DNA from: Chloroflexota bacterium
GTDB lineage: Bacteria > Chloroflexota > Anaerolineae > JACRMK01
DNA: 33,660 nucleotides
Reading direction: 5' to 3'
Assembly: GCA_016200765.1 (NCBI GenBank)
Contig: JACQEC010000030.1
Location: 1 to 33,660, forward strand
The position numbers and the translations under genes are program-made. Below are positions 3,189-33,302 of the stretch, one piece after another. Every line of letters starts with the position of its first letter. Position 1 is the stretch's first letter. A model generated the notes under the pieces. The model saw only the letters and a program-made list of their open reading frames with translations, was not told the DNA's origin and ran no database searches.

Positions 3189-4810
3189 TTATCTCATCTT
3201 CGCGTATTCTTCGCGGATGGACTGCACGATTTCGCGCGCCGTGAACGGCACGCCGCCATACGAGTTGAGCTTGACGAAGGGCCGCAGGAACGCGCCGCGC
3301 AGGATGTCGGCCAGCTGGCCGGAGTAGTTCATCTCCGGCACGATGACCGTCTTCTTATTCTTCAGAAACTCGGCAATCGGCTTTTCCGGCAGGGGCATCA
3401 GCGCCTTGGGATAGAAGGCGTGAACCGCTATGCCATCGTCGGCGCACGATTGGATGGCCTCGCGCACCGGACCGATGGTCGAGCCCCAGCCGATGATCCC
3501 CAACTCCGCTTTCGGGTCGCCGAGATGCTCCCACATCTCGTGCAGTTCGATGTATTCCAGCGCGGCTTGCAGTTTGCGGGCGCGCTTGCGCATGTTGGCC
3601 GAGTGCATCTCCACGCTAAAATTCGGAGCGCCGCTGGGGAAGTGTTCCAGCCCTTCGGCGATGTATTGCCCGCCGCTCTGCCCGGGAATCGCCATAGGCG
3701 AAACACCGCTTTCGGTGTCCGTGTAGCGCTCGTAGGGGCCGGCGCCGTTGGCCGATGGGTTGTAGAGCAGGCGCGGCTCGTGAAACACTTTCGACAGGTC
3801 AAACGGCTCGATGGTTTGCACGCGCACCGCCATATCCTGATCGGACATGAAGATGACGGGCGTCTGGTATTTCTCGGTCAGGTTGAAGGCGTGGATCATC
3901 TGGTAGAAGCAGTCTTCGATGGTGGTTGGCGCGACGACGATGCGCGGCGTGTCGTCGTTTCCGGCGAAGCAGGCGTTGCGCAGGTCGCCCTGCGAGACTT
4001 TGGTCGGCATGCCGGTTGAAGGGCCGCGATTTCGTCTTCGGCCTGAATGACCGTGCCGCCGTATTTGGGGAACTCGGCGGCCAGAAACTCCATGATCTCC
4101 GAGGCCGGGGTGATCGGGTATCCGGCGAAGAAACGGCAGTTCGCCGCGATCGCGCCGAGCGAGATGGCCTGATTGCCCGACAGCACCAGGCGGTCAATGC
4201 GCGGCCCGCTGGGGATGGGCAGGTGGAAGGGGGCGTCCTTGCTCACCTTCTGCTCGACGAACAGGTAGCCTTTTTCCAGCGCGGCGATGTTCGTCGGCAG
4301 AACGTCGGCGTGGCGGCCAAAACGTTTCTCGACCGCTTTCTTGGCGATGTCCATATCCATGTCGAACAGCTTGACCAGCGCGCCCACCGCGACCATGTTG
4401 TAGCCGCGCGCAAACGAGAGCGACTTGGCGATGTCGTGCAGTGGGATGCCGATCTGCAGGTGGCTGTCGCCGTTGGGGTCGAGCTTGACGTCGTTGCTGT
4501 TGTAGACGAGCACGCCGTTCCGCTTCAACAGCCGGTGGTAGCGCTCGTAGGTTTCTTCATCGTAGGCCAGCAGGACATCCAACTCGTCGCCTTGCGCGAC
4601 AAGCGGCTCCAGCGCGGCGCGCATCTGGTACATGACGTGGCCGCCCTTGATTTCGGCGGGGATGGTGCGCGTGGTATAAACTTCCAAACCGGCATAGGCC
4701 GCCATAAAGGCGAAGATTTCGCCCGTGGCGACGATGCCTCCGGCGGCAGAATCACCCCCCACGCGCAAGACGAGGTCTTGACTGCCGCTGTGACCGTTCG
4801 AGGTACTCAT
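3189..4810 (-). pseudogene. korA: 2-oxoacid:ferredoxin oxidoreductase alpha subunit (gamma-alpha fused), disrupted by an internal out-of-frame deletion
   Basis: The N-terminal ORF (4810..3896) reads ...AGYPITPASEIMEFLAAEFPKYGGTVIQAEDEIAA and then becomes nonsense. The C-terminal ORF, in another frame, resumes at (NR)GPSTGMPTKVSQGDL... The conserved block of about 45-50 aa normally between EDEIA and QRGGPSTG.PT is absent. Junction is at about 4020-4030. Confidence 0.75.
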
Positions 4811-5022: not shown

Positions 5023-6225
<1,203 letters not shown>

Positions 6226-6286
6226 CAGACCTCCAGTCGTGCCTGTGGATTGCCCCATTCAGGGGCAGGCGCAAGAGCGCGCCCAC

Positions 6287-6315
6287 AGTCTACAATAGAG
6301 TGCGCGCGGTGGCAA
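6287..6315 (-). promoter_or_regulatory. Possible sigma-70-type promoter for the thiolase gene
   Basis: The minus strand reads TTGCCA-17 nt-TAGACT, about 60 nt upstream of ATG 6225. Confidence 0.3.
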
Positions 6316-6430
6316 AAGCGGCGATGGTGTGGGCGCGTTGGCGCGTTCCGCGTTGCCGTGACGGGGTGCGAATGACGATAGGCGACCGGCTGTGCGTGAG
6401 CGAGCGCTATGAAGGAAACGGTTGATCTTT

Positions 6431-9400
6431 CTACCGTTCGATAACCGGCAGGTACAACCAATACTCCTGTTTCGCCACGATGTAGCCGGTCTGCGTTAGC
6501 GATGCGCTGCCCGCCGGGCCGCTGATGGTCAGCATGACGGTGTACGTGCCCGGCGTATCGTAGACGTGAACTGGGTTGGTCAGCGTGCTGGTCTGTCCAT
6601 CGCCAAACGACCACAGACTCTGCGTGAAGTCGCCGCTCGATAGGTTGCTGAACGTCACCGTCAAGGGCACCGTGCCGCTGACCGGCACGGCTGTGAAGGC
6701 GGCTACCGGTGGTTGATAGACCGTAAGCATGTGAGTAGCACTAATGGCGCTGACGGTATTGGTCGCCGTCACCGTGATCGTCTGCGGGCCGGGTAAGGTG
6801 AAGCTGAAGTTGGCCGTGTCGCTTAAACCGCCGGTGTGAGTCAGCAACAACTGATTGGTCACCTGCCAGACATAACTGATCGGCTGGGTGGCGGTGAGCG
6901 GTCCAACGGTGGCTGTGATTGTGTAGAGGCTATTGGTGGTCGCCGTGACCGGACCGCTCAAGTCAAGGCTGCCCAGCGGTATAGTGAAGGTGGCGGTAAG
7001 CGCGCGGTCGGCGGTGAGCGTGAGCGTCAGTGGATTGGACGAACTGTTCACGTCGCCGCTCCAATTGCTGAAGCGGTAGCCCTGCGTCGGCGTGGCGGTC
7101 AGGGTGACCGTGACGGGCGGCGTGCTCGTGATATAACCCGCGCCGCCGTTGCAGTTGCCGGATGGGCTGGCCGTGATTGCGCCCGCCCCCGAAGGATTCG
7201 CGGCAATCGTCAACGTGTAACAGAGTGCGCTGGTTAGCCCGACCACACCCACCGGAGCGACCTGAAAGTAAGCCGTGCCATTGCCCACCTCGCCATAGAA
7301 GTTATAGCCCCAGCACTTGAGGCCGCCACCGGTCGTCTGGCCGCAGGTGTGACCGTAACCGGCGGCGATAGCGCTCACGCCGCTGGTGAGGCCCACCACA
7401 TCCACTGGGGTGATGCGGTCGGTGGTCGTCCCATCGCCCAACTGGCCAAAGTAGTTCCGGCCCCAGCACTTGACGCCCCCGTCGGTTGTCAGCACGCAGG
7501 AGTGATAGTAACCGGTGGCGATGGCGCCGATGCCGCTGGTGATCCCCACTACACCCACTGCGATGTTGCGCTGGGTGGTCGTCCCATCGCCCAATTGGCC
7601 GAAGTAGTTATAGCCCCAGCACATGACGCCCCCGCCCGTCAACAGCAGGCAGGTGTGGTAGAAACCGGCAGTGATGGCACTGACGCCACTGTCCTGCCCC
7701 GCCACATCCACCGCGGTCAGCCGGTTCGTGGTCGTCCCATCGCCTAACTGGCCGTAAGTGTTAACGCCCCAGCACTTGAGGCCGCCGCCGGTCGTTAGCG
7801 CGCAGGTGTGGTAGAGACCGGCGGTGATGGCGCTGACACCGCTCGTCAGTCCCGCCACATCCACTGCGGTCAGCCGATCCGTGGTCGTGCCATCGCCCAA
7901 CTGGCCGTCATAGTTATAGCCCCAGCACTTGACCCCGCCACCGGTTGTCAGCGCACAAGTGTGGTAGTCCCCGGCGGCGATGGCGCGGACGCCGCTGGTC
8001 AACCCCACCACATCTACTGCGGTGGAGTGGTCGTTGGTTGTTCCATCGCCCAACTGGCCGGAGTAGTTCCGGCCCCAGCACTTGACGCCGCCGGCCGTCG
8101 TCAGCGCGCAGGTGTGATATTCACCAGCGGCGACCGCGCTGACCCCGCTGGTCAGACCCGCCACATCTACTGCGGTGGCGCGCTGCATGGTTGTCCCATC
8201 ACCCAACTCGCCGTCGTAGTTATAGCCCCAGCATCTGACGCCACCTGCGCTGGTCAGCGCGCAAGTGTGGTAGCCTCCGGCGGCGACTGTGCTGACGCCG
8301 CTGGTCAGCCCCACCACGTCTACTGAAGTGACTTGAAAGAGAATCACACCATTGCCCAACTGGCCGGAGGAGTTATTGCCCCAGCACCTGACTCCGCCTG
8401 TGCTGGTCAGCGCGCAGGTGTGATAGCCCCCGGCGGCGACCACACTGACACCGGTGGTCAGCCCCGTCACATCCACCGCGCTGGCGCGCTGCGTGGTCGT
8501 CCCATCGCCCAACTCGCCTTCGTAGTTATAGCCCCAGCACTTGACGCCGCCTGCGCCGGTCAGCGCGCAGGTATGATAGTAACCGGCGGTGACGACGCTG
8601 ACGCCACTGGTCAGGTCCACGACATCCACCGCGGTCGCACTCAGCGTGGTCGTCCCGTCGCCCAATTGGCCATAGGCGTTCCAGCCCCAGCACTTGATGC
8701 CGCCGACCGTCGTCAGCGCGCAGCTGTGCTGGTAACCGGCGGCGATGGCGAGGACGCCGCTCGTCAGCCCCACCACATCCACTGCGGTGAGGCGGTCGTA
8801 AATGGTCGTCCCATCACCCAGCTGGCCGAGGCCGTCATAGCCCCAGCACTTGATGCCGCCGACCGTCGTCAGCGCGCAGCTATGCCTACTTCCGACGGCA
8901 ATAGCGCTCACGCCGCTGGTCAAGCCCAACACATCCACCGCGCTCAGCCGGTTCGTGATCGTCCCATCGCCCAGTTGGCCGTAGTAGTTCCAGCCCCAGC
9001 ACTTGACGCCGCCTTTTGTCGTCAACGCGCAAGTGTGCAAGCCTCCGGCGGCGATGGCGCTGACCCCGCTGGTCAGGCCCGTCACATCCACCGGGGTGGT
9101 GCGCTGGATGGTCGTTCCGTTGCCCAACTGGCCATAGAAGTTCCAGCCCCAGCACTTGACGCCGCCGCCGGTCGTCAGCGCACAGCTATGCTCACCCCCG
9201 GCGGAGATGGCGCTCACGCCGCTGGTCAGGCCCGTCACATCCACCGGGGTAGTGCGCTGGGTGGTCGTCCCATCACCCAACTGGCCGTAGAGGTTATAGC
9301 CCCAGCACTTGACGCCGCCGCCGGTTGTCAGCGCACAGGCGTGAAAGCCCCCGGCGGCGATGATACCGTTCGTTTGCGGCATCAGGCTCAGCGCTGATGG

Positions 9401-9655
9401 CGCCGCCGGTAGGGGCAATTGAGCGATACGCGTATCGGCTGACACTGGCATCGCATCGGGCGGTGGATGGGGCAGGGTGATGGTGCTGACGCCGTCGGCG
9501 GCACCCTGCGGCGCGTGCTGAGACGGTAGGGAAACGGCACGGGAGATTGTTGCGACAGGGTACGCCGTGGCCGCCTGCGGCCAGACGAGAAGCAACCCAC
9601 AGACCGCGAGGGACAGCCTGCGGATCGCGAGGTAGAGCCAGTGCTGAGATGACAT
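6431..9655 (-). CDS. Secreted RCC1-repeat protein (14 repeats) with C-terminal Ig-like/PKD domains
   Basis: N-terminal signal-like LSLAVCGLLLVWPQAATA. There are 14 copies of the ..H.CALT..GG.KCWG.N.YGQLGDGTT. unit. Then follows an ANPSGAGAITASP...YRFSNWSGD module (InlB-B-repeat-like), an Ig-like module and a PKD signature (WSFGDG...Y..PGTYTV.L). Confidence 0.85.
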   Translation of the reverse strand: MSSQHWLYLAIRRLSLAVCGLLLVWPQAATAYPVATISRAVSLPSQHAPQGAADGVSTITLPHPPPDAMPVSADTRIAQLPLPAAPSALSLMPQTNGIIAAGGFHACALTTGGGVKCWGYNLYGQLGDGTTTQRTTPVDVTGLTSGVSAISAGGEHSCALTTGGGVKCWGWNFYGQLGNGTTIQRTTPVDVTGLTSGVSAIAAGGLHTCALTTKGGVKCWGWNYYGQLGDGTITNRLSAVDVLGLTSGVSAIAVGSRHSCALTTVGGIKCWGYDGLGQLGDGTTIYDRLTAVDVVGLTSGVLAIAAGYQHSCALTTVGGIKCWGWNAYGQLGDGTTTLSATAVDVVDLTSGVSVVTAGYYHTCALTGAGGVKCWGYNYEGELGDGTTTQRASAVDVTGLTTGVSVVAAGGYHTCALTSTGGVRCWGNNSSGQLGNGVILFQVTSVDVVGLTSGVSTVAAGGYHTCALTSAGGVRCWGYNYDGELGDGTTMQRATAVDVAGLTSGVSAVAAGEYHTCALTTAGGVKCWGRNYSGQLGDGTTNDHSTAVDVVGLTSGVRAIAAGDYHTCALTTGGGVKCWGYNYDGQLGDGTTTDRLTAVDVAGLTSGVSAITAGLYHTCALTTGGGLKCWGVNTYGQLGDGTTTNRLTAVDVAGQDSGVSAITAGFYHTCLLLTGGGVMCWGYNYFGQLGDGTTTQRNIAVGVVGITSGIGAIATGYYHSCVLTTDGGVKCWGRNYFGQLGDGTTTDRITPVDVVGLTSGVSAIAAGYGHTCGQTTGGGLKCWGYNFYGEVGNGTAYFQVAPVGVVGLTSALCYTLTIAANPSGAGAITASPSGNCNGGAGYITSTPPVTVTLTATPTQGYRFSNWSGDVNSSSNPLTLTLTADRALTATFTIPLGSLDLSGPVTATTNSLYTITATVGPLTATQPISYVWQVTNQLLLTHTGGLSDTANFSFTLPGPQTITVTATNTVSAISATHMLTVYQPPVAAFTAVPVSGTVPLTVTFSNLSSGDFTQSLWSFGDGQTSTLTNPVHVYDTPGTYTVMLTISGPAGSASLTQTGYIVAKQEYWLYLPVIER
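7223..9370. repeat. Tandem coding repeats of about 153 bp x 14 (RCC1 blades)
   Basis: The CWG...GQLGDGTT periodicity is about 51 aa. The repeat periodicity produces periodic long antisense ORFs. Confidence 0.85.
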
Positions 9656-9786
9656 GGCGCGCTTCTAGGGTTGAGACGCGACGAGTTCGATGTTGACACA
9701 CCTGCCGCGCCGCTCGCGAGCATGGGCCGCGCGGCGCTTCGTATGCTACGCTCTCACGCGCATGATGTCAAATGGTCGCAGACGCG

Positions 9787-9896
9787 GCATCGGTTGGAAA
9801 CCGACGCCTACAGTTGGAAAACCCGCTACGCGGGTTGGGGACGCCGAACCGGCGCAGCCGGTTTGATAGCAATAGGCGTCGGTTTCCAACCGATGC
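9787..9896. repeat. 110-nt composite inverted repeat: 24-bp perfect outer stem enclosing two internal hairpins (REP/MITE-like or structured RNA)
   Basis: gcatcggttggaaaccgacgccta (9787-9810) is the exact reverse complement of 9873-9896. Inside are cccgc-tac-gcggg and ccggc-gca-gccgg hairpins. It lies directly after the GNAT stop codon. Confidence 0.7.
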
Positions 9897-9897
9897 C

Positions 9898-10977
9898 TCA
9901 CCCCTTCAGCCGCGCTTCCCACACCGTCTCAAACCCCAGCCCCGACCAGAACTTTGACGAGAGCGGGTTGTGTTGCAGGTAGATCAACCAGTAGTTGGCG
10001 ATGCGGCGCGCGCGAAACCACTCGTCGGCGGCGGCGAAGAGCAGGTGGCCAATGCCCTGCCCGCGGCGGCGCTCGTCCACCGCGGCTTCGGCGATCAGGC
10101 CGTAGCGGCCGGTGGCGAACAGTGGTTGCGCCCAATCGTCGTTGATCGTCTGCACATAGAGGCTGAAAAAGCCGACCACCGCGCCCGCGTCCTCCGCGAC
10201 CAACAGCGTGCTCTCGCGGCCATCTGCGGCGGCCTTCTCGAAGGTGCGCTTCATGCGCGCCGCTTCGCCCAGCGCAATCTGCAAGGTCGGCTCCAGCGCG
10301 GCGTGGTAGGCCATGCTCTGCATGCCGATGCGCACCGCGCCGTCAACATCGCGCGGCCCGGCGCGGCGCACCCGCACGGCGGGCGTGTTGGGGGCAACCG
10401 GAGGGGCAACCGCAAGGGTTGCCCCTACCGATGGGGTGTAGGGCGGGACGGGCGGGCGGCGCAAGGGCTCGCCCTGAGCTTGTCGAAGGGTGTAGGCGTA
10501 ATAGGGGCGGAAACCGAACGCGCGCGCGGCCTCGCGCATGGCTTCATCGCGGGTCGGGATGTGCACCAGCAAGGACGGCGTGCCCCAACGGACGGCTTGA
10601 TCTTCGGCGCGCGCCAGCAGGTCGGGCCATGTGGCGGGCGCTCCGGCAAACAGCCCGATGCTGGTAAAGGAACGGGGATAATACGACGCGAAGATGTCGC
10701 TCTCGCGCTGTTCGGCGTGGTAGAGGGCGATGGCGCCGGTGATGACGCCGCCCTCCTCCGCCGCGAAGGTCGCATAGCGCCCCAGCGACAGCCCGTCGGC
10801 AGAGGCTTTTGGGGCCAGCAGTCCCTTGATGAACCCGGAACTGCTCGGGAACGGAATGGCGTGCGGCGATGCTGTCAAGCGCGGGTCACGGCGGACGCGC
10901 TCGGCGGCCTGCGCCTCCGCCAGCGCTTCCAGCGCAGGCAGGTCGCGACTTTTGGCGAGCCGAATAACGTGGGTCAT
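9898..10977 (-). CDS. GNAT-family N-acetyltransferase, two tandem GNAT-like domains
   Basis: The C-terminal domain has the acetyl-CoA motif VDERRRGQGIGHLLF, and the N-terminal half is also GNAT-like. The linker LRQAQGEPLRRPPVPPYTPSVGATLAVAPPVAPN is encoded by repeat elements. Confidence 0.8.
   Translation of the reverse strand: MTHVIRLAKSRDLPALEALAEAQAAERVRRDPRLTASPHAIPFPSSSGFIKGLLAPKASADGLSLGRYATFAAEEGGVITGAIALYHAEQRESDIFASYYPRSFTSIGLFAGAPATWPDLLARAEDQAVRWGTPSLLVHIPTRDEAMREAARAFGFRPYYAYTLRQAQGEPLRRPPVPPYTPSVGATLAVAPPVAPNTPAVRVRRAGPRDVDGAVRIGMQSMAYHAALEPTLQIALGEAARMKRTFEKAAADGRESTLLVAEDAGAVVGFFSLYVQTINDDWAQPLFATGRYGLIAEAAVDERRRGQGIGHLLFAAADEWFRARRIANYWLIYLQHNPLSSKFWSGLGFETVWEARLKG
10391..10490. 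repeat. REP-like elements embedded in the GNAT coding sequence
   Basis: Contains ggggcaacc, then the hairpin ggggcaacc-gcaag-ggttgcccc (10403-10425). Also contains ccctgagcttgtcgaaggg (10472-10490), the reverse complement of the 2163-2180 motif family. Confidence 0.6.
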
Positions 10978-10980
10978 GGG

Positions 10981-11199
10981 CGCGTTATGCGTTGTGCGTT
11001 AGTGCGTTGCGCGTTGGCGCGATAGGTTCACCGCCGAGCGCGCCGAGAACGCCGGAGAGAACTCGGAACTTCACGCTCGAAACTTCACGCCGCGAAAGCG
11101 CCAGAGGAAATCTCTGCGTACTCGGCGTTCTCGGCGGTGAATGATTGCCCGCTTCGACGGTGCACGCGTGAACGCATAACGCGACAACGCGCTACGCCG
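10981..11199. repeat. Composite imperfect palindrome built of several short repeat families
   Basis: The left end has gcgttatgcgttgtgcgttagtgcgttgcgcgttgg and ttcaccgccgag(cgcgccgag)aacgcc. The right end has the mirror image ggcgttctcggcggtgaa ... gaacgcataacgcgacaacgcg. The centre has aacttcacgc x2. Confidence 0.6.
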
Positions 11200-11808
11200 C
11201 TACGCCGCACAGCGATCCACCACATCCACCAGCGTCTCCAACGGCTGTGCGCCGACCACCAGATACTTGCGCCCGACGATGAACGCCGGCACGCCGCTTA
11301 ACTTGTACATGAACCCCAGCGCCAGTTCGCGATCCACGCGGGCTTTCAGCGCGCGCTCGTCCAGCGCATGGCGGAAGGCCGCGCCATCCAGCCCCGCCGA
11401 TTCCGCCAACTCGGTCAGCACGTTCGGGTCGCTCAAGTTGCGCCCCTCGGCAAAGTGCGCGTGAAAGAGCGCGCGCGCATATGGCTCGATCAGCCCCGCG
11501 TCCTCCGCGAACTTCGCGCCCTCCAGCGCCAGCCGCGAGCGCGCATTGCGGTTGCGCGGCCCGAAGGTCAAGCCGTAGCCCTGCGCCATCGCCTGCACCT
11601 GCGGCCAATGCTCGTCCACCTTGCGGCGGTAGGCGGCTGTGCGCCGCTCCTCCTCCGGCGACGGCGGCGCGCTCGACTCCGGCCGTAGTTCATACGAGAG
11701 CCAGCGCACCTCGACATCGCGGATTCTACGCAAGCGGTCCAAACTGGACTGCGCCATGTAGCAGTACGGTCAGATGAAATCGCTGAAGACCTGAATCTCA
11801 ACGGGCAT
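11200..11808 (-). CDS. DsbA/FrnE-like thiol:disulfide oxidoreductase with in-frame TGA at the first active-site Cys (candidate selenoprotein; alternatively a nonsense pseudogene)
   Basis: ATG(11808) MPVEIQVFSDFI-TGA(11772-11770)-PYCYMAQSSLDRL..., continuing into the 185-aa ORF. GAGGTGA lies 5 nt upstream of the ATG. The C-terminal region (LSGVPAFIVG) is typical of the DSBA family. Confidence 0.6.
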
Positions 11809-11826
11809 ACGTCACCTCTCGGCGCA

Positions 11827-13032
11827 TTATACCGCAGATTCCGGCAGTGGTTGCCGCGCGCGCGGGATGCCAACCAACAAACCGATCGGCCCCAGCGCGA
11901 GGAGCACCATCGCCCACTCCAACCCGAAGTTCTCGGCGGCCAGCCCCAGCAACCACGGCGTGACTCCGGCGGCCATGGCCGCGACCGAGGAGAGGGCCAT
12001 GCTGGTGCCCGACTGCCCCGGCATGGCCGAGTAGAGTTGGCCGCGCACAATTGCGTACCAGCCGGCGGTCAACAGCCCGACCACCGCCAGCAGAATATAC
12101 TTGAGCCCGACCACCGGCGTGGCCAGCAAGGCGGCATAGACCATCAGCACAAGGAGCGCGCTCCAGCGCAGATAGGTCAGCCCGCGCACGCGCTCTAACA
12201 GCGGGATGATGAAGAAGCCTCCCACCAGCCCGGCCACCGATAAGACCGTCACCGCCAGCGCGGCTTCTGCCGTCGTCACCTGCACCACATCGGTAAAGTA
12301 GAGCGGGGCAAATTCGAGGAAGATATCGAGTATCAGGTTGCAGAGCTCGAGCAGAATCAACCAGCGCAGGATGTTGCGGTCGCTCAAGGCGCGCAGGGCG
12401 CTGACGACTCCGGCGCGGAATCCGGCGGTCACATCCGCTTCCTGAAAGGTGTCTGTGACGCTGGCGTGAGCCGCCCTCTGTGACCAGATCAGCGCCACCA
12501 GCGCGAGGGCGAAAACCGCGAAGCCCAGATACAAGGCCCGCCAGCCCCAACCCAGCGCCAGACCGCCGGAGACGAGCAGAGAGCCGCCCACCACGCCCAC
12601 CGAGCCGAACAGCGTCCAGCGCGCCATCATCTGTTCGTGGCGGCCGGGGTTCAGGTCCATCAGCGTCGCCTGCGACAAACTGACAAACGCGCCGCCGGCC
12701 GGGTAGAAGATCACAAAGCCAACCAACAGCGCGATGAACGTCTGGCTGAAGCCGATGATCGCCAGTGCCAGCGCGAAGACCAGCCCCCCGCCGACGATCA
12801 GCGCCTTGCGCTTCCAGACATCGCCCAGAATGCCGAGCGCCGGCTCCAGCGCATTGCCGACCAGCGCGGGCACGCTCAACAGCAGGCCGATCTGCTCGTA
12901 ATTCAGGTTCAGGTCGGCGCGGATGACCGGCAGGGCCGCGCCTTGCGCGCCATAGACCAACTCATCGAGCAGTTCAATCGTCAGGATGACGAGCGTGGCG
13001 CTCCAGAGCGAACGCAGGGCGGGGCGGCGCAT
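11827..13032 (-). CDS. MFS transporter
   Basis: About 12 predicted hydrophobic helices in an MFS-like pattern. Start set at ATG 13032 (MRRPALRSLW) because the longer ORF would read through the 13041-13109 inverted repeat. Confidence 0.75.
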   Translation of the reverse strand: MRRPALRSLWSATLVILTIELLDELVYGAQGAALPVIRADLNLNYEQIGLLLSVPALVGNALEPALGILGDVWKRKALIVGGGLVFALALAIIGFSQTFIALLVGFVIFYPAGGAFVSLSQATLMDLNPGRHEQMMARWTLFGSVGVVGGSLLVSGGLALGWGWRALYLGFAVFALALVALIWSQRAAHASVTDTFQEADVTAGFRAGVVSALRALSDRNILRWLILLELCNLILDIFLEFAPLYFTDVVQVTTAEAALAVTVLSVAGLVGGFFIIPLLERVRGLTYLRWSALLVLMVYAALLATPVVGLKYILLAVVGLLTAGWYAIVRGQLYSAMPGQSGTSMALSSVAAMAAGVTPWLLGLAAENFGLEWAMVLLALGPIGLLVGIPRARQPLPESAV

Positions 13033-13040
13033 GGGCGAAG

Positions 13041-13109
13041 TAGGGGCGAAGCCGCGCGCACGCATCACCACGTTAACGAGCAGTCTAAGCGCGCGCGGCT
13101 TCGCCCCTA
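13041..13109. repeat. Inverted repeat TAGGGGCGAAGCCGCGCGC / GCGCGCGGCTTCGCCCCTA (19-bp arms, 31-nt loop); likely terminator or REP-like element after the SLT gene
   Basis: Arms at 13041-13059 and 13091-13109 are exact reverse complements. It belongs to the same TAGGGGCGAA...TTCGCCCCTA family as 27362-27387. Confidence 0.6.
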
Positions 13110-13130
13110 TCGGCGGGGGTGCTCCCACGT

Positions 13131-13685
13131 TTAGCGTGGCAAGTAGCGCTTGAAGCGCTCGTAGTAGGCCAGCACCGCCGGCACATAGCGCTGGGTCTCC
13201 GCCGGCAGGAACCCGGCGTAGGCGTCGTAGCGGGCGATGGGCGCGTTGGCGCGCCGGGCCGCGCCGCGCACTCCGGCGTAGCGGTAAGCGGGGTTGCGCG
13301 ATACCTCTTCGTCGAGCAGGCCAGGGCCGGCGTTATAGGCCGCCAGCGCGGGGCGCAAATCCTTAAAGGTCTGCAAGTGGCCGGCCAGAATATGCACGCC
13401 TAGCGCCACGTTGGGCTGTGGGTCAAACGGGCCGCCCAGCACCTGCATCAGGCCGTTGGCGCCGGCGCGGGATTGCGCGTTGGGGTTGCCGCCGGACTCC
13501 TGCATCATGATCGCGGCAATCAACACCGGATCAACCTTATACTGGTCGGCGGCCGGCTCGATCAACTCCCACCAGCGAGTAACCGCGTCGGGCGGGCTGT
13601 CCGATACGCCCAGCGAGCCGAGCAGAAGGATGGCGCCGATCAGCACGACGGCGCAGATGAGCCAATAGCGCATAAGTGTCATCAC
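13131..13685 (-). CDS. Lytic transglycosylase (SLT domain) with N-terminal membrane anchor
   Basis: SLT catalytic context AAIMMQESGGNPNAQSRAGANGLMQV, and an N-terminal TM segment YWLICAVVLIGAILLL. Confidence 0.8.
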   Translation of the reverse strand: MMTLMRYWLICAVVLIGAILLLGSLGVSDSPPDAVTRWWELIEPAADQYKVDPVLIAAIMMQESGGNPNAQSRAGANGLMQVLGGPFDPQPNVALGVHILAGHLQTFKDLRPALAAYNAGPGLLDEEVSRNPAYRYAGVRGAARRANAPIARYDAYAGFLPAETQRYVPAVLAYYERFKRYLPR

Positions 13686-17510: not shown

Positions 17511-18580
17511 ATGAGCAACAACAAACGCGATTATTACGACGTGCTGGGGGTGCCGCGCGGCGCCAGCGCCGATGACCTCAAGCGCGCCTACCGCAAGCTG
17601 GCGATGCAGTATCACCCCGACCGCAACAAGAACGCCGACGCCAGCGCCAAGTTCAAGGAAGTGAACGAGGCGTACGAAATCTTGAGCGACGACCAGAAAC
17701 GCTCGCTCTACGACCGCTTCGGCCACGCCGGCCCGCGCGGCGGCGGCTTCTCCGCCACCGACTTTGAAGGCTTTACCGGCTTCAGCGACATCTTTGAAGA
17801 CCTGTTCGGCGGCTTCACGCGCAATACGGCCTCTCAACGACGCGCGCCCCGCCGCGGCGCCGACCTGCGCCACGTCCTCAACATCACCTTTGAAGAGGCG
17901 GTCTTCGGCGCGGACAAAGAGATTGAGGTCCTGTCTTACGACAGTGCAACGGCAGCGGCGAGATGCGGCGCGTTCAGCAGACGATCCTCGGCTCGATGGT
18001 CAACGTCAGCACCTGTGACCGCTGTGGCGGCGAGGGCGAGATCGTCACCACGCCCTGTCACGAGTGTCGCGGCCACAAGCGTGTCCAGCGCGCGCACACC
18101 CTCACCGTGCAGGTTCCGGCCGGCGTGGACGACGGCACGCAGATTCGGTTGGCCGGTCAGGGCGAACTCGGCGTGAACAACGGCCCGGCGGGCAACCTGT
18201 ACGTGCAGTTGAAGGTCAAGCCGCACCCATACTTCCAGCGGCAGGAGAACGACATCCTGCTCGACGTCTCGATCAACTTCGCGCAGGCCGCGCTCGGCGA
18301 CGAGATTATCGTGCCAACACTGGACGGCGACACGCCGTTCAAAATCCCCGCCGGCACGCAGACCGGCAAGGTGTTCCGCCTGACAGGCAGAGGCGTGCCG
18401 TTCCTGCGCCGCAACGGGCGCGGCGACCAGCGGGTGACGGTGCACGTGGCGACGCCCACCGACTTGAGCGACGAACAGCGCAAGTTGCTCAAGCAGTTGG
18501 CGAAGACGCTGGGCAAAGAGGTGATCGAACAGCCGGGCAAGGGGATCTTCGATAAGATGAAGGATGCCCTTGGAGTTTAA
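17511..18580 (+). pseudogene. dnaJ: Co-chaperone DnaJ, disrupted: internal deletion removing about 1.5 zinc-finger CxxCxGxG motifs plus a frameshift
   Basis: The J domain (YYDVLGV...HPDRN) and G/F region are intact up to ...[10 protein letters not shown] second frame then continues [47 protein letters not shown]... Only 2.5 of the 4 expected CxxCxGxG motifs are present. The frames differ (17963-17511 = 452, which is 2 mod 3). Confidence 0.75.
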
Positions 18581-18606: not shown

Positions 18607-18678
18607 AATCCCAAATCCCAAACCCCAATCCCCAAACGGATGACCTGTTTAGGATTGGGGATTTGGGATTTTTTCTTT
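18607..18678 (+). terminator. Rho-independent terminator of the heat-shock operon (low-complexity hairpin + T-tract)
   Basis: aatcccaaat...ccccaatcc pairs with ggattgggg-atttgggatt (18652-18670), followed by TTTTTCTTT. Confidence 0.75.
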
Positions 18679-18691
18679 GTACACCGAACTC

Positions 18692-19533
18692 ATGAACTTG
18701 TTGGAAGTTTCAGTCAACGCCGACGGCGAGGCCGCCGAAGCGATCAGCGAACTGTTTAACCGGCTGGGCCGGGGCGGAGCGATCCTTGAGGAAAGACCCG
18801 CCGCCGACAGCGCCCCGGAATCTTCGTGGGCGGACGACCCGCCGGAGCCGCGCGCGATTGTCGTCAAGACCTATCTGCTGGCCGACGAGCATATTGACGC
18901 CAACCGCCGCGCGATTGAGGAGGGTCTCTGGCATCTGCGTCGTTTCATCCGGTGCAGCACGTCGGCGCGCGCGTGGTGCTGAAGCCGACTTGGCGCGAGT
19001 ACGATCCACAGCCCGGCGAGTTGGTGGTTGAGCTTGACCCCGGCATGGCCTTCGGCACCGGCCAGCACCCCTCGACGCGCTTCTGCTTGCTCGCGCTGGA
19101 GCGCCATATACGCCCCGGCATGAGCGTGCTGGATGTCGGCACCGGCTCCGGCATTCTCGCCATCGCCGCCGCGAAGTTGGGCGCAGGCGCGGTCTTCGCC
19201 TTCGACGACGACCCGCTGGCGGCGCAGATTGCGCGCGAGAACGTGGCGCTCAACCGGCTGGGCGAGCGTGTGCGGCTGGCGGCAGGCACGCTCGACGCGC
19301 TCAACCTTGAACCGGAGGCGTGGGATTTGATCCTCATCAATATCCTCGCGCCGGTGATCGTCGCGCTGTTGCCGCGCGCGCGCCTCTTACTGCGCCCCGG
19401 CGGTCAGGTGATTCTGTCGGGCATCATTGCCACGCAAGAGAGCGATGTGCTGGATGCCCTGCGCGCCGTCGGCCTGACGCTGGTCGAGCGCCAGCAGGAA
19501 GGCGACTGGGTACTGCTGGTTGGTGGAAGATGA
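18692..19533 (+). pseudogene. prmA: Ribosomal protein L11 methyltransferase PrmA, disrupted by an internal deletion plus frameshift
   Basis: N-terminal MNLLEVSV..DGEAAEAISELF...GLWHLRR, then a second frame continues FHPVQHVGARVVLKPTWREY...LDPGMAFGTGQHPST...VLDVGTGSGILAIAA. The usual (E/D)DW..AWK block before F/YHP is missing. The frames differ (18952-18677 = 275). Confidence 0.7.
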
Positions 19534-30422: not shown

Positions 30423-33302
30423 CTAAACGACAGTTGGCGCAACCTCCGCCGCCGGGGCCGCGGCGCGGGAGATCTCCTGCTTGACGCGCTCCCAGGTGGA
30501 TAAGGGAATGGTCAGGAACGCATCCACCACCGCCGGGTCGAACTGGGTGTCGCGCTGGCGGCGGATTTCGGCGGCGGCTTCGGTGAAGGAACGCCCGATG
30601 CGATAGGGGCGCGTGTTCGTGATCGCGTCCAGCGTGTCGGCGATGGCAAAGATACGGGCTGGCAGGGGAATGTTTTCGCCGTCAAGACCATAGGGGTAGC
30701 CGGAGCCGCTCCAGCGCTCGTGATGGAATTGCACAACCGCCAGCGCCGGTTGCAGGAAGGAGATGTCCAGCAGGATTTGGCGGCCAATCTCCGGGTGACG
30801 GCGCATCGCCTGCCATTCGGTCGGATTGAGCGGGCCGGGCTTGAGCAAGATGGCATCGGGCACGCCGATTTTCCCGATGTCGTGCAGGAGCGCGCCGAGT
30901 TCAAGCGCTTGATGGATGACAGGATCGGTCACGCCCAGCGCGTCGGCCAGCACCAGCGCATAGGCTGTGACCCGTTTTGAGTGGCCTTCGGTTTCGCGGT
31001 CTCGCGCATCCAGAGCCGCGCTCAGGGCGCTGAGAGTCGCCTGATAACTCTGGCGCAGGTCGCTCAGCGCCTCCGCCAAGGCTTCTGCCTGCAGTTCCGT
31101 TTTTTTGTGAAGCGAGACGCGGTGAATGGCAATGCCTCCGATTTCGGTAATCGTCTGCGCCAGGCGCAGTTCATCCTCGGAGGGCGGATGATTGAAGACC
31201 AGCGATAGCACGCCTATGGGGTTGCCGCCCGGACGCATCGGCAGGGTGAGGCCGCACGCCCCGCCGCCCAGCGTGTCTCTCAAGGTGGGGGGAAAGCGCC
31301 CGTCCTGCGGCAGGTTGAGGGAGAGGTCGGGTTGCAACGTCTCCAGAACCTGTGACGCGAGGCTGCCCGCCAGCGGCAAGCGCAGGCCCTGCATCGGCGC
31401 GAGCACGCCGACCGCCAGCGTCAGTCGAACTTCCTCACGCTCCGGGTCAAGCAGGTGGATGGCGCCCCCCACCACGCCCAGCGTACTGCTCAGTTGTTTG
31501 AGCAAGGTCTCCATCACCGATTCAAGGTCAGTCGCTTGGCGCATGGTGGTGCTGACCGACAAGAGGGTCACGAGCTCCGCCACCTGCCGCTTGACCGTCG
31601 CGTAGAGCCGGGCGCGCGTCAGCGCCATGGCTCCCTGCTGGCCGAAGATAGTCGCGACCTCCACATCCAGCGGCGTGAACCGCTCGTCGTTCTGCGTGTC
31701 AATCAGGATCAGCGCGCCCACCGCCGCGTCGTCGCTCAAGAAGGGCACGCCCAGAATGGAGCGAATGTCAAAGAGGGAGACGAGCGGCTGGCTGGCCTGA
31801 TTGGAGGTGCGCGCATGGTTGACGAAAATAGGCTTCCGTTCCCGCACCACGCGCGCGCCGACCAGCTTCGGATCGGACAAAGACTGGCGCATCCCGATGA
31901 ACTTCTCGCGTTTGTGGCCGCGCGCCGCGTGACCAACCAGTTCGTCGCCCTCGCGCAACCAGAGCAGCGCCAGGTCCACGTCGAACAGCCTCATGCTTTC
32001 CTCGCAGATGGTGTCCAGCACGCGGTCGAGGTCGAGTGTCACGCCCATCGCGAGGCCAATCGGAATCAACGCTTCGGCCACCCGCCCGCGCTCCAGCGCG
32101 ACCTGCTGTTTTTGCAAGGTTGTCGTGCGCTCAATCAGCAACTGGTCGCCGCGCCGCACCACCAATAGCAAGACAATGAACAGCAGCGCCGACATGCCCA
32201 CAAACAGCCCGCTGGTGCCCCAGCGCACGACGTTGAGTTCGTCGGGCGAAACCAGCGGCCCCAACAATTGCGCGGCCAGATCGCCGCCCAACAGCGCCAA
32301 CAGCGCAACGGCGATAACGCTGGTCGCGGCGAAATAGCGGGTCAGTTCAAAGTGGCGTACCTGCTCGTATTCCGCCACCACCGCGCCCGTGGCAAACACG
32401 AACCCGATGAGCATCAGCAGATGGTACAACCACCAGCTGAGATGCCAGAGCGGCATCGTCGCCATGGAGAAGACCGCTTCGGCCAGAAAGCCGCACGCCA
32501 TAGCGAGCGCGCCTTCCAGCGGCCGCCCCTCGCGGCGATAGACCGTCCAGAAATAGATTCCGACTCCGGCGTACAAGAGCATCGCCAGCGCGGCCAAGAT
32601 ATAGAGACTTGAGGGGCTTAGCTCTGCGAGCGCCGCCAGCGGCGCTGGCGCGAGAAATGCCATCAGGATATAAAGGATATAGACGATCAAACCGACCTGC
32701 CAGAGGCGGCGGCGCTGGGAGAGAAGCTTGAGTTGTAGAGGGGTCGGCCAGGGTATAGCGGCCAGCGCAAGCAGAATCGCGCCCACCATCAGGCTAATGG
32801 GCGCCGACCAGGTGACGGCCAGAGTGGGGTCAACGGCGAGACGCGGGGGTGATGGCGATGCGGCGGCCGGCGCTGAAGATTTGGGCGACTCATATTCGTC
32901 GCTCAGTTCAGCCGACGACGCGGCGTCGGGCGTGACGTGGCCGGCGTGCGGGTTGACGGTGAAGAGCACGCCCGGCGTCGCCACCCCGTGGATGAGGAAG
33001 ACGCTGGCGATGCCGGCGAAGGCCAGCGTAACCAACAGCGTGCGCGCGTCGGCTACCGGGGCGGCCAAACTGCCGATCAGTATGGCGACGACCAGCGCAA
33101 TCAGGCTTGTCAGGGAGACAATCTGAAAGTGCGCCCACAGCGCAATCAACCCGATATCCCATGCCGGCACGAGCCGCAAGACCGCCAGCAGTGCCAGCGG
33201 CAACAGCAGTGTGCCGGAGAGGACGAGCGGGTTAACGGCCGCGCGCGCCGGCGTTCTCAAGGGTGCCCCGGAAGTGATCACAAGTGAGCATGATTCTAGC
33301 AC
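30423..33302 (-). CDS. Membrane-anchored GAF-GAF-HD-GYP signalling protein (probable c-di-GMP phosphodiesterase)
   Basis: The C-terminal HD-GYP domain has HDIGKIGVPD and HHERWSGSGYPYGL. Two GAF-like regions precede it. The N-terminal ~380 aa form a polytopic membrane domain. Confidence 0.85.
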   Translation of the reverse strand: MLESCSLVITSGAPLRTPARAAVNPLVLSGTLLLPLALLAVLRLVPAWDIGLIALWAHFQIVSLTSLIALVVAILIGSLAAPVADARTLLVTLAFAGIASVFLIHGVATPGVLFTVNPHAGHVTPDAASSAELSDEYESPKSSAPAAASPSPPRLAVDPTLAVTWSAPISLMVGAILLALAAIPWPTPLQLKLLSQRRRLWQVGLIVYILYILMAFLAPAPLAALAELSPSSLYILAALAMLLYAGVGIYFWTVYRREGRPLEGALAMACGFLAEAVFSMATMPLWHLSWWLYHLLMLIGFVFATGAVVAEYEQVRHFELTRYFAATSVIAVALLALLGGDLAAQLLGPLVSPDELNVVRWGTSGLFVGMSALLFIVLLLVVRRGDQLLIERTTTLQKQQVALERGRVAEALIPIGLAMGVTLDLDRVLDTICEESMRLFDVDLALLWLREGDELVGHAARGHKREKFIGMRQSLSDPKLVGARVVRERKPIFVNHARTSNQASQPLVSLFDIRSILGVPFLSDDAAVGALILIDTQNDERFTPLDVEVATIFGQQGAMALTRARLYATVKRQVAELVTLLSVSTTMRQATDLESVMETLLKQLSSTLGVVGGAIHLLDPEREEVRLTLAVGVLAPMQGLRLPLAGSLASQVLETLQPDLSLNLPQDGRFPPTLRDTLGGGACGLTLPMRPGGNPIGVLSLVFNHPPSEDELRLAQTITEIGGIAIHRVSLHKKTELQAEALAEALSDLRQSYQATLSALSAALDARDRETEGHSKRVTAYALVLADALGVTDPVIHQALELGALLHDIGKIGVPDAILLKPGPLNPTEWQAMRRHPEIGRQILLDISFLQPALAVVQFHHERWSGSGYPYGLDGENIPLPARIFAIADTLDAITNTRPYRIGRSFTEAAAEIRRQRDTQFDPAVVDAFLTIPLSTWERVKQEISRAAAPAAEVAPTVV

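Follow-up and report, generated by a model that had tools for sequence, protein, structure and literature searches.

A probable selenocysteine codon in the redox motif of a FrnE/DsbA-like oxidoreductase gene from a Chloroflexota bacterium

Selenoproteins of the DsbA-like UxxC family (COG2761, PF01323), in which selenocysteine (Sec, U) replaces the first Cys of the redox motif, were first reported in 2005 from the Sargasso Sea metagenome as nine sequences with predicted Sec insertion sequence (SECIS) elements (PMC1088965). Members of this family were subsequently reported from Anaeromyxobacter dehalogenans, Desulfovibrio desulfuricans and Desulfotomaculum reducens (PMC1794560); a survey in 2016 counted the family in 41 organisms (PMC5029168), and a review from 2026 lists it as "DsbA-like protein form 1" (PMC13188914). 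Among proteins of known structure, the closest relative of the gene described here is FrnE of Deinococcus radiodurans (DR_0659), a cytoplasmic disulfide reductase/isomerase of the FrnE subfamily of DsbA (cd03024). It is stress-induced and regenerates its active site through a C-terminal CxxxxC tail, which is present in many FrnE proteins and absent from some homologues (PMC8945050). Here, a FrnE/DsbA-like gene on contig JACQEC010000030.1 of a Chloroflexota bacterium (GCA_016200765.1) was analysed; the window, i.e. the whole stretch of DNA that was studied, is this 33,660-bp contig. The gene lies on the minus strand and runs from ATG 11808-11806 to TAG 11202-11200, and the sole interruption of its frame is a TGA at 11772-11770. 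It is concluded that this TGA is very probably a genuine Sec codon at the active site of the encoded protein.

The following features of the gene were identified:

11200-11808, minus strand: predicted coding sequence of the FrnE/DsbA-like selenoprotein, 202 codons plus TAG, in which codon 13 is the UGA read as Sec
11770-11772, minus strand: in-frame UGA, predicted U13, first position of U-P-Y-C, identified by column conservation and by alignment with FrnE Cys22 of CPWC
11761-11763, minus strand: TGC codon for Cys16, putative resolving Cys of UxxC, an invariant Cys (TGC or TGT) in 18/18 aligned loci
11773-11808, minus strand: twelve sense codons 5' of the UGA (MPVEIQVFSDFI), predicted to form strand beta-1 and the F-S-D-x-x lead-in, identified by codon-position variation and lying inside the Pfam DSBA match

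On the minus strand the gene starts with ATG CCC GTT GAG ATT CAG GTC TTC AGC GAT TTC ATC TGA CCG TAC TGC TAC ATG GCG CAG TCC AGT TTG GAC CGC. The translated N-terminus is MPVEIQVFSDFI*PYCYMAQSS, with the motif FSDFI-UGA-PYC. When the stop was replaced by Cys, the product was matched by Pfam DSBA (PF01323) with E=1.1e-36 and 126.8 bits (cut-off 25.6). This match covers residues 5-196, corresponding to profile positions 2-189 of 191, and spans the TGA; therefore, the twelve upstream codons belong to the DSBA domain. In a phmmer search against the PDB, D. radiodurans FrnE (5cnw/5cp1) was the best match (E=8e-19; query 3-198 aligned with chain residues 12-216), followed by SCO1869 (3e-14), and U13 was aligned with Cys22 of the FrnE motif C22-P-W-C25. 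The initial annotation, made from the DNA sequence alone, had proposed that the frame of a 185-aa open reading frame (ORF) continues upstream via the TGA to ATG 11808, and that the TGA occupies the first Cys position of the CxxC motif in a DsbA/FrnE-like protein. Both proposals are borne out, the former by the sequence and the Pfam match across the TGA, the latter by the alignment with FrnE Cys22 and with the Cys forms described below. Its observation of a high G+C content at third codon positions in the twelve codons before the TGA was also reproduced (9/12), and its statement that DsbA-like selenoproteins come from computational and metagenomic work agrees with the literature (PMC1088965, PMC1794560, PMC5029168).

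To follow the TGA through the family, the DNA of homologues was scanned for the motif [FYW]SD-x-x-?-P-x-C and the codon in the ? column was recorded. TGA was found in 42 of the 43 motif-bearing loci first retrieved, the remaining locus having TGT, and also in every one of the Chloroflexota-type loci retrieved later. These TGA loci are independent assemblies from unrelated projects, with protein identities of 35-76%, and include an Anaerolineae metagenome-assembled genome (MAG), a Caldilineaceae MAG, other Chloroflexota MAGs and soil metagenomes; the MAGs GCA_038198935.1, GCA_016235055.1 and GCA_030157145.1 each contain an orthologue. About 25 of the TGA loci belong to Desulfosporosinus, among them D. 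fructosivorans 63.6F and the strains OT and BG; Desulfosporosinus is a member of the Firmicutes/Clostridia and decodes Sec itself. Cys forms were identified as P0029 (locus L056, TGC), P0073 (L057, TGT) and locus L043 (TGT). All three are full-length, and P0029, with 45% identity, reads SDYVCPWCYMG. Since Cys-form homologues exist at the TGA column, the locus shows the classical Sec/Cys pair. Thus, both comparisons proposed in the initial annotation, for TGA at the same column in orthologues and for Cys/Sec pairs, gave positive results.

That annotation had itself raised the competing explanation of a TGC->TGA nonsense mutation or a base-call error, under which the gene would be a pseudogene or would stem from faulty assembly. 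A single base separates TGC from TGA, and the contig does carry other apparent lesions, as had been stated: frameshift-like splits were found in dnaJ, prmA and the gene of the alpha subunit of a 2-oxoacid:ferredoxin oxidoreductase (OFOR). These are, however, splits of the frame and hence probably indels, not substitutions. Elsewhere the gene is undamaged and is covered in full by the Pfam match, the homologues are too divergent to be copies of one sequence, and more than 40 loci, assembled independently from different samples, phyla and sequencing projects, have TGA at this position. Because of this recurrence in independent assemblies, neither a miscalled base nor a nonsense mutation private to this genome can be the cause, and it is almost certain that the TGA is not a lesion.

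The presence of the TGA also explains how the family appears in public databases. Approximately 27 homologous proteins share 63-76% identity, nearly all of them have 180-192 residues, and these close homologues begin at a Met directly after the CxxC position (MA[QH]SSL[DE]RL...). The same N-terminal shortening was observed in a second tier of homologues with ∼45% identity. P0001-P0028 are N-terminally shortened entries of 180-192 residues that start 3' of the active site; for the window gene itself, the public gene call P0001 begins at TTG 11742 (180 aa) and the mechanical ORF at ATG 11757 (185 aa). Gene callers stopped at the TGA, which resulted in truncated database entries of the close homologues. 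In the public entry P0071 the homologous UGA is rendered as W, which probably reflects the translation table used. None of the NCBIfam models scored above its cut-off against the clade and only sub-threshold matches were obtained; NF041057 (Rcas_1661 family thioredoxin-like (seleno)lipoprotein) reached 30.1 bits versus a cut-off of 190, over the C-terminal 75 residues only.

Upstream of the TGA, two further features were found:

11812-11818, minus strand: Shine-Dalgarno-like GAGGTGA, 3 nt before the ATG, with its GAGG core at 11818-11815, 6 nt before the ATG; a ribosome-binding function is presumed
11826-11831, minus strand: TATAAT, candidate -10 box, overlapping the TAA stop of the upstream major facilitator superfamily (MFS) transporter gene

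The positions of these signals bear on a second explanation, in which the TGA is a true stop. The product would then start at ATG 11757 or TTG 11742 and be a DsbA domain without CxxC, and the twelve codons would either encode a leader peptide or have no coding function. The ATG five codons after the TGA is indeed kept in all Chloroflexota-type loci, and public annotations choose ATG 11757 or a nearby start. This conserved Met, however, belongs to the motif P-x-C-Y-M, which is also present in the Cys forms (P0029). Moreover, a comparison of 11 close-clade orthologues showed 3, 1 and 10 variable sites at codon positions 1, 2 and 3, respectively, in the 36 nt preceding the TGA, and variation at every one of the 60 positions directly 5' of the ATG. 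Such third-position-dominated variation indicates that the twelve codons evolve as coding sequence and, on this comparative evidence, are translated; the twelve residues are kept, as the initial annotation had suggested to examine. The codons also match the DSBA profile in beta-1 and the FSDxx lead-in, and the Shine-Dalgarno-like motif and the TATAAT precede ATG 11808 and not ATG 11757. GAGG or GGAG was found at the equivalent position in most close-clade loci, and 9 of the 11 close-clade loci have TATAAT 16-25 nt 5' of the ATG, even those in which the upstream gene is another one. Finally, without beta-1 and the redox centre the thioredoxin fold of the product would not be complete, and the covarying hairpin described below would be left without a role. 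Therefore, a true stop at this position is considered very unlikely. Of the two upstream signals noted in the initial annotation, TATAAT lies exactly where it had been placed, and GAGGTGA is present as well, with a spacing of 3 nt (or 6 nt from the GAGG core) instead of the 5 nt given. A scan for consensus promoters near the gene revealed neither a full sigma-70 -35/-10 promoter nor a terminator, and the promoter role of TATAAT is therefore tentative.

Directly 3' of the UGA, a candidate SECIS element could be identified:

11733-11755, minus strand: candidate bacterial SECIS hairpin GGCG-[CA]-GUCCA-GUU-UGGAC-CGCU, identified by comparative pairing, with a minimum free energy (MFE) of -8.7 kcal/mol

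The apical 5-bp helix is formed by 11749-11745 with 11741-11737 and closes the loop GUU (11744-11742). Below it, the 4-bp stem GGCG/CGCU pairs 11755-11752 with 11736-11733 and is separated from the apical helix by a 2-nt CA bulge; the MFE structure of the complete 23-nt segment has -8.7 kcal/mol. The initial annotation had drawn a stem-loop here, of which the apical helix GUCCA-GUU-UGGAC (11749-11737) is retained, whereas the lower stem as drawn is better replaced by GGCG/CGCU with the CA bulge. It had also placed the loop G at about 25 nt from the UGA, in a geometry compatible with a SECIS element; the measured distance between the UGA and loop G 11744 is 25 nt. The published bacterial SECIS (bSECIS) model (PMC13188914, Fig. 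2) allows a loop of 3-9 nt that starts with G followed by U, an upper stem of 4-16 bp, a spacing of 16-37 nt between UGA and loop, and an MFE of at most -7.5 kcal/mol. With a loop of 3 nt (GUU), a stem of 5 bp, a spacing of 25 nt and an MFE of -8.7 kcal/mol, the hairpin of the window falls within all of these limits.

For the comparative test of the hairpin, 17 distinct 60-nt segments starting at the TGA were aligned without gaps. RNAalifold independently recovered the 5-bp apical helix from this alignment. In the structure of nine pairs, 92% of the cells were paired compared to 79% after shuffling, with none of 500 shuffles as high, and pairing fell to 25-48% when the 3' partners were slid by 1-3 columns. 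The closing pair of the apical helix was GC in 7, UA in 6, AU in 3 and GU in 1 of the segments and was never unpaired. As both bases of this pair are third codon positions, the exchanges lead to coupled amino acid changes (Q..D, H..E, K..D, L..D), and these could be seen in the list of homologous proteins. The hairpin also constrains synonymous sites: the codons TCC-AGT-YTG show no synonymous change except T/C at the loop position. AGT, which accounts for only 8% of the Ser codons in the genes of the window, is present in 18 of 18 loci, and TCC in 17 of 18, the exception being Ala GCC in L037; the Pro, Cys, Tyr and Leu codons nearby vary without such restriction. Genes of the Cys forms (L056, L057, L043) cannot fold the structure, with forced energies of +8 to +12 kcal/mol. 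On these alignments, the hairpin is a conserved and covarying RNA structure tied to the TGA, and the conservation in homologues that the initial annotation had proposed to look for is found together with covariation of the closing pair.

In the Desulfosporosinus loci (L007-L019, L027-L041), different hairpins were observed 18-47 nt after the same UGA, namely GGGAAAGUCCC at +18 and CUUGACC-AGUU-GGYCAAG at +30. The latter has the apex CC-AGUU-GG in common with the Chloroflexota element, and in it an A·C mismatch alternates with A-U. The hairpin of the window clade, N-UCCA-GUY-UGGA-N', differs from the candidate hairpin of the Desulfosporosinus orthologues, and the SECIS element appears to have been re-positioned between the two phyla.

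The hairpin is also relevant for a third explanation, according to which the ribosome passes the UGA without inserting Sec, either by near-cognate insertion of Trp or Cys or as low-level read-through after loss of the Sec machinery. In line with this, the Sec machinery was not found on the contig, and P0071 gives W at the homologous codon, although this is probably the effect of the translation table mentioned above. On the other hand, the column holds the catalytic Cys in the Cys forms, so that Trp would abolish redox activity. TGA is, furthermore, an efficient normal stop in the window, as it is the ordinary stop codon of hrcA, grpE, prmA and further genes; for the same reason, the genetic code is not reassigned. 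Read-through of another kind would also not account for a conserved SECIS-type hairpin with a G-U loop signature at the canonical distance, nor for the lack of this hairpin in the Cys forms, which is what SelB-dependent decoding predicts. Together with the documented use of Sec in Chloroflexota (PMC13326102), this makes non-Sec read-through improbable. A search of the window for further TGAs in frame with coding-like sequence on both sides gave nothing but an antisense artefact at 30978, and no second selenoprotein candidate is present on the contig.

Some of the richest selenoproteomes among bacteria are those of Chloroflexota (PMC13326102, PMC13582414), and in richness of selenoprotein families the Firmicutes/Clostridia rank second (PMC1794560). 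In one related locus (L058, GCA_030157145.1), a gene of 417 residues at 5718-6971 on the minus strand, 3 kb from the orthologous dsbA(U), was labelled "SelA (faint)". This candidate was rejected, as it encodes a DgaE-family pyridoxal phosphate ammonia lyase that matches the selA_rel model TIGR01437 with 1.9e-66 and the true selA model with 52 bits versus a cut-off of 268.

Several observations weigh against the assignment of the TGA as a Sec codon. Genes for selA, selB, selD and tRNA-Sec were not found on the 33,660-bp contig. ARAGORN and Rfam detected only a tRNA-Leu in the window, and ARAGORN detected no tRNA-Sec in 44 loci; Pfam annotation of the 26 large ORFs of the window revealed no SelA, SelB or SelD, and tblastn with E. 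coli SelA, SelB and SelD gave no match in the window and 490 kb of related loci. With Rfam, the window had no match except the tRNA at the gathering score, 11650-11830 had none at E<=10, and no SECIS family was matched. When the 76 nt after the UGA were folded as a single sequence, z was +1.23 and 180 of 200 shuffles folded at least as well; single-sequence folding was therefore dropped as evidence for the hairpin, being indistinguishable from chance, and the significance of the hairpin is taken from the comparative data alone. The hairpin itself is small (5+4 bp with a triloop). Its H..E variants (-6.9 kcal/mol) and the hairpins of the Caldilineae-type clade (-3.5 to -6.1 kcal/mol) are weaker than the threshold of -7.5 kcal/mol, and the lower stem shows no variation within the close clade and persists only in part in the distant one. 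In addition, the sequence quality of the contig is imperfect, as seen from the splits in dnaJ, prmA and OFOR, and the DsbA-like UxxC family is, like the gene of the window, known from bioinformatics alone. The Sec machinery not observed here and the purely bioinformatic basis of the family are the reasons for the residual doubt. Nevertheless, with the same TGA conserved across independent assemblies, Cys at the same column in homologues and a covarying hairpin tied to the codon, the Sec codon is considered highly probable.

The decoding mechanism can be drawn by analogy from the established bacterial Sec pathway, from which we infer Sec insertion at the UGA and binding of SelB. The mRNA would probably begin just 3' of the TATAAT box and translation would start at ATG 11808. 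At the UGA (11772-11770), a SelB·GTP·Sec-tRNA(Sec) complex would bind the hairpin 11755-11733 with its apical GUU/AGUUU loop, and SelB would deliver Sec in competition with release factor 2. In the folded protein, Sec13 would stand at the N-terminal end of helix alpha-1 in the thioredoxin fold and act as the attacking nucleophile, and, by analogy to the CPWC centre of FrnE, it would alternate between a selenolate and a selenenylsulfide with Cys16.

When the protein sequence was read directly, neither a signal peptide nor a membrane anchor could be identified; the redox motif is located at residue 13 and only strand beta-1 MPVEIQVFSDFI precedes it. The window protein thus resembles FrnE in the missing signal peptide, an active site near the N-terminus, the motif x-P-(W/F/Y)-C and a thioredoxin fold with a helical insert. 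It differs in that FrnE has Cys at the first position of the motif where the window protein would have Sec, and in that FrnE has CxxxxC at residues 239-244 whereas the window protein ends at residue 202. The identity between the two is low, and the relationship is one at the family level. A C-terminal CxxxxC tail is not present in the window protein, which ends ...VVDRCAA with a single Cys, and its homologues end with VVDKC or have no Cys. From the sequence we infer that the product is a cytoplasmic FrnE/DsbA-like selenol/thiol oxidoreductase. By analogy to FrnE of D. radiodurans, its role is probably the reduction or isomerisation of cytoplasmic disulfides under oxidative stress.

The C-terminal Cys (VVD[KR]C; 11203-11211), located two to three residues from the end, is found in most members of the clade and is absent from P0004, P0019 and P0026. 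It might serve as a selenenylsulfide partner, loosely like the CxxxxC tail of FrnE.

Compared to the described DsbA-like UxxC selenoproteins, the gene shares the Pfam domain, the UxxC motif with Sec for the first Cys, the widespread Cys homologues and a small SECIS hairpin just 3' of the UGA whose apical loop contains G. Because all of the defining features that were tested were found, the gene is filed in this family, and, judged from its sequence, it is a further member; NIP15863.1 is one of the published representatives. It differs from the described members in belonging to a Chloroflexota clade with a conserved neighbourhood of its own. As in the bSECIS model and the SECIS of E. coli fdhF, the hairpin is located in the coding region immediately 3' of the UGA. 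Its 3-nt loop starts with G-U as in the model; alternatively, A-GUU-U fits N1-G-[G/U]-N-N2. It is at the small and weak end of the range that the model allows, and several orthologues are above -7.5 kcal/mol. Replacement of the first CxxC Cys by Sec in thioredoxin-fold proteins, and in DsbA-like proteins in particular, has been described since 2005, which lowers the novelty of the finding; what may be mildly new is a group of Chloroflexota orthologues with a compact SECIS element of its own, and Sec may also be used more widely than has been realised. This orthologue group looks Sec-only.

The gene is part of a neighbourhood with the order SLT/M23 transglycosylase - (MFS) - dsbA(U) ... GNAT - thiolase (5023-13685 in the window), which is common to the Chloroflexota loci L004, L045, L046 and L058. 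In the window, a protein of 1074 residues with RCC1 repeats and PKD domains (6431-9655) is encoded between GNAT and thiolase; the other loci do not have it. Elsewhere on the contig, the housekeeping genes lipA, OFOR subunits, thiolase, hrcA-grpE-dnaK-dnaJ-prmA-rsmE and an opp transporter were found, together with a GAF-HD protein.

The three split genes of the contig have the following structure. In dnaJ (17511-18580, plus strand), the J domain lies in one frame (17511-18176) and the remainder of the Zn-finger and the C-terminal domain in another (17963-18580), and the first CxxCxGxG repeats are apparently absent at ∼17930-17960. Either an indel or an error of assembly accounts for this split, or dnaJ, an essential chaperone gene, is truly damaged. 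The gene of the ribosomal protein L11 methyltransferase PrmA (18653-19533, plus strand) consists of two frames that overlap at ∼18919-18982, and Pfam PrmA matches the second frame only from profile position 109 on. The gene of the OFOR alpha subunit (3189-4810, minus strand) is divided into POR and the start of POR_N (3896-4810) and, in another frame, the rest of POR_N and PFOR_II (3189-4010). Three frameshift-like splits on one contig suggest indel errors in the assembly.

Among the best 150 cluster representatives (50% identity) of an exhaustive search, 77 had no N-terminal room for CxxC, compared to 39 full-length Cys forms; this count was made from protein sequences, and some of the 77 short representatives will be fragments from contig ends. 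It is conceivable, if rather doubtful, that in the FrnE-like DsbA branch Sec predominates over Cys in environmental bacteria and that the branch is systematically misannotated as N-terminally truncated "DsbA family proteins". The same search also contained P0124, P0126, P0127, P0137 and similar proteins of 620-1200 residues with 3-6 tandem matches to the DsbA-like domain.

The value of the finding lies mainly in the annotation and in the example of a SECIS-shaped coding sequence, and it opens no new question. As an example it is clean, since an RNA element within a coding sequence constrains both synonymous sites and the choice of amino acids. A corrected annotation would restore a redox-active selenoenzyme to the genomes of Chloroflexota and Desulfosporosinus, in which the current gene calls lack the active site, and the gene marks the uncultured source organism as a probable user of selenium.

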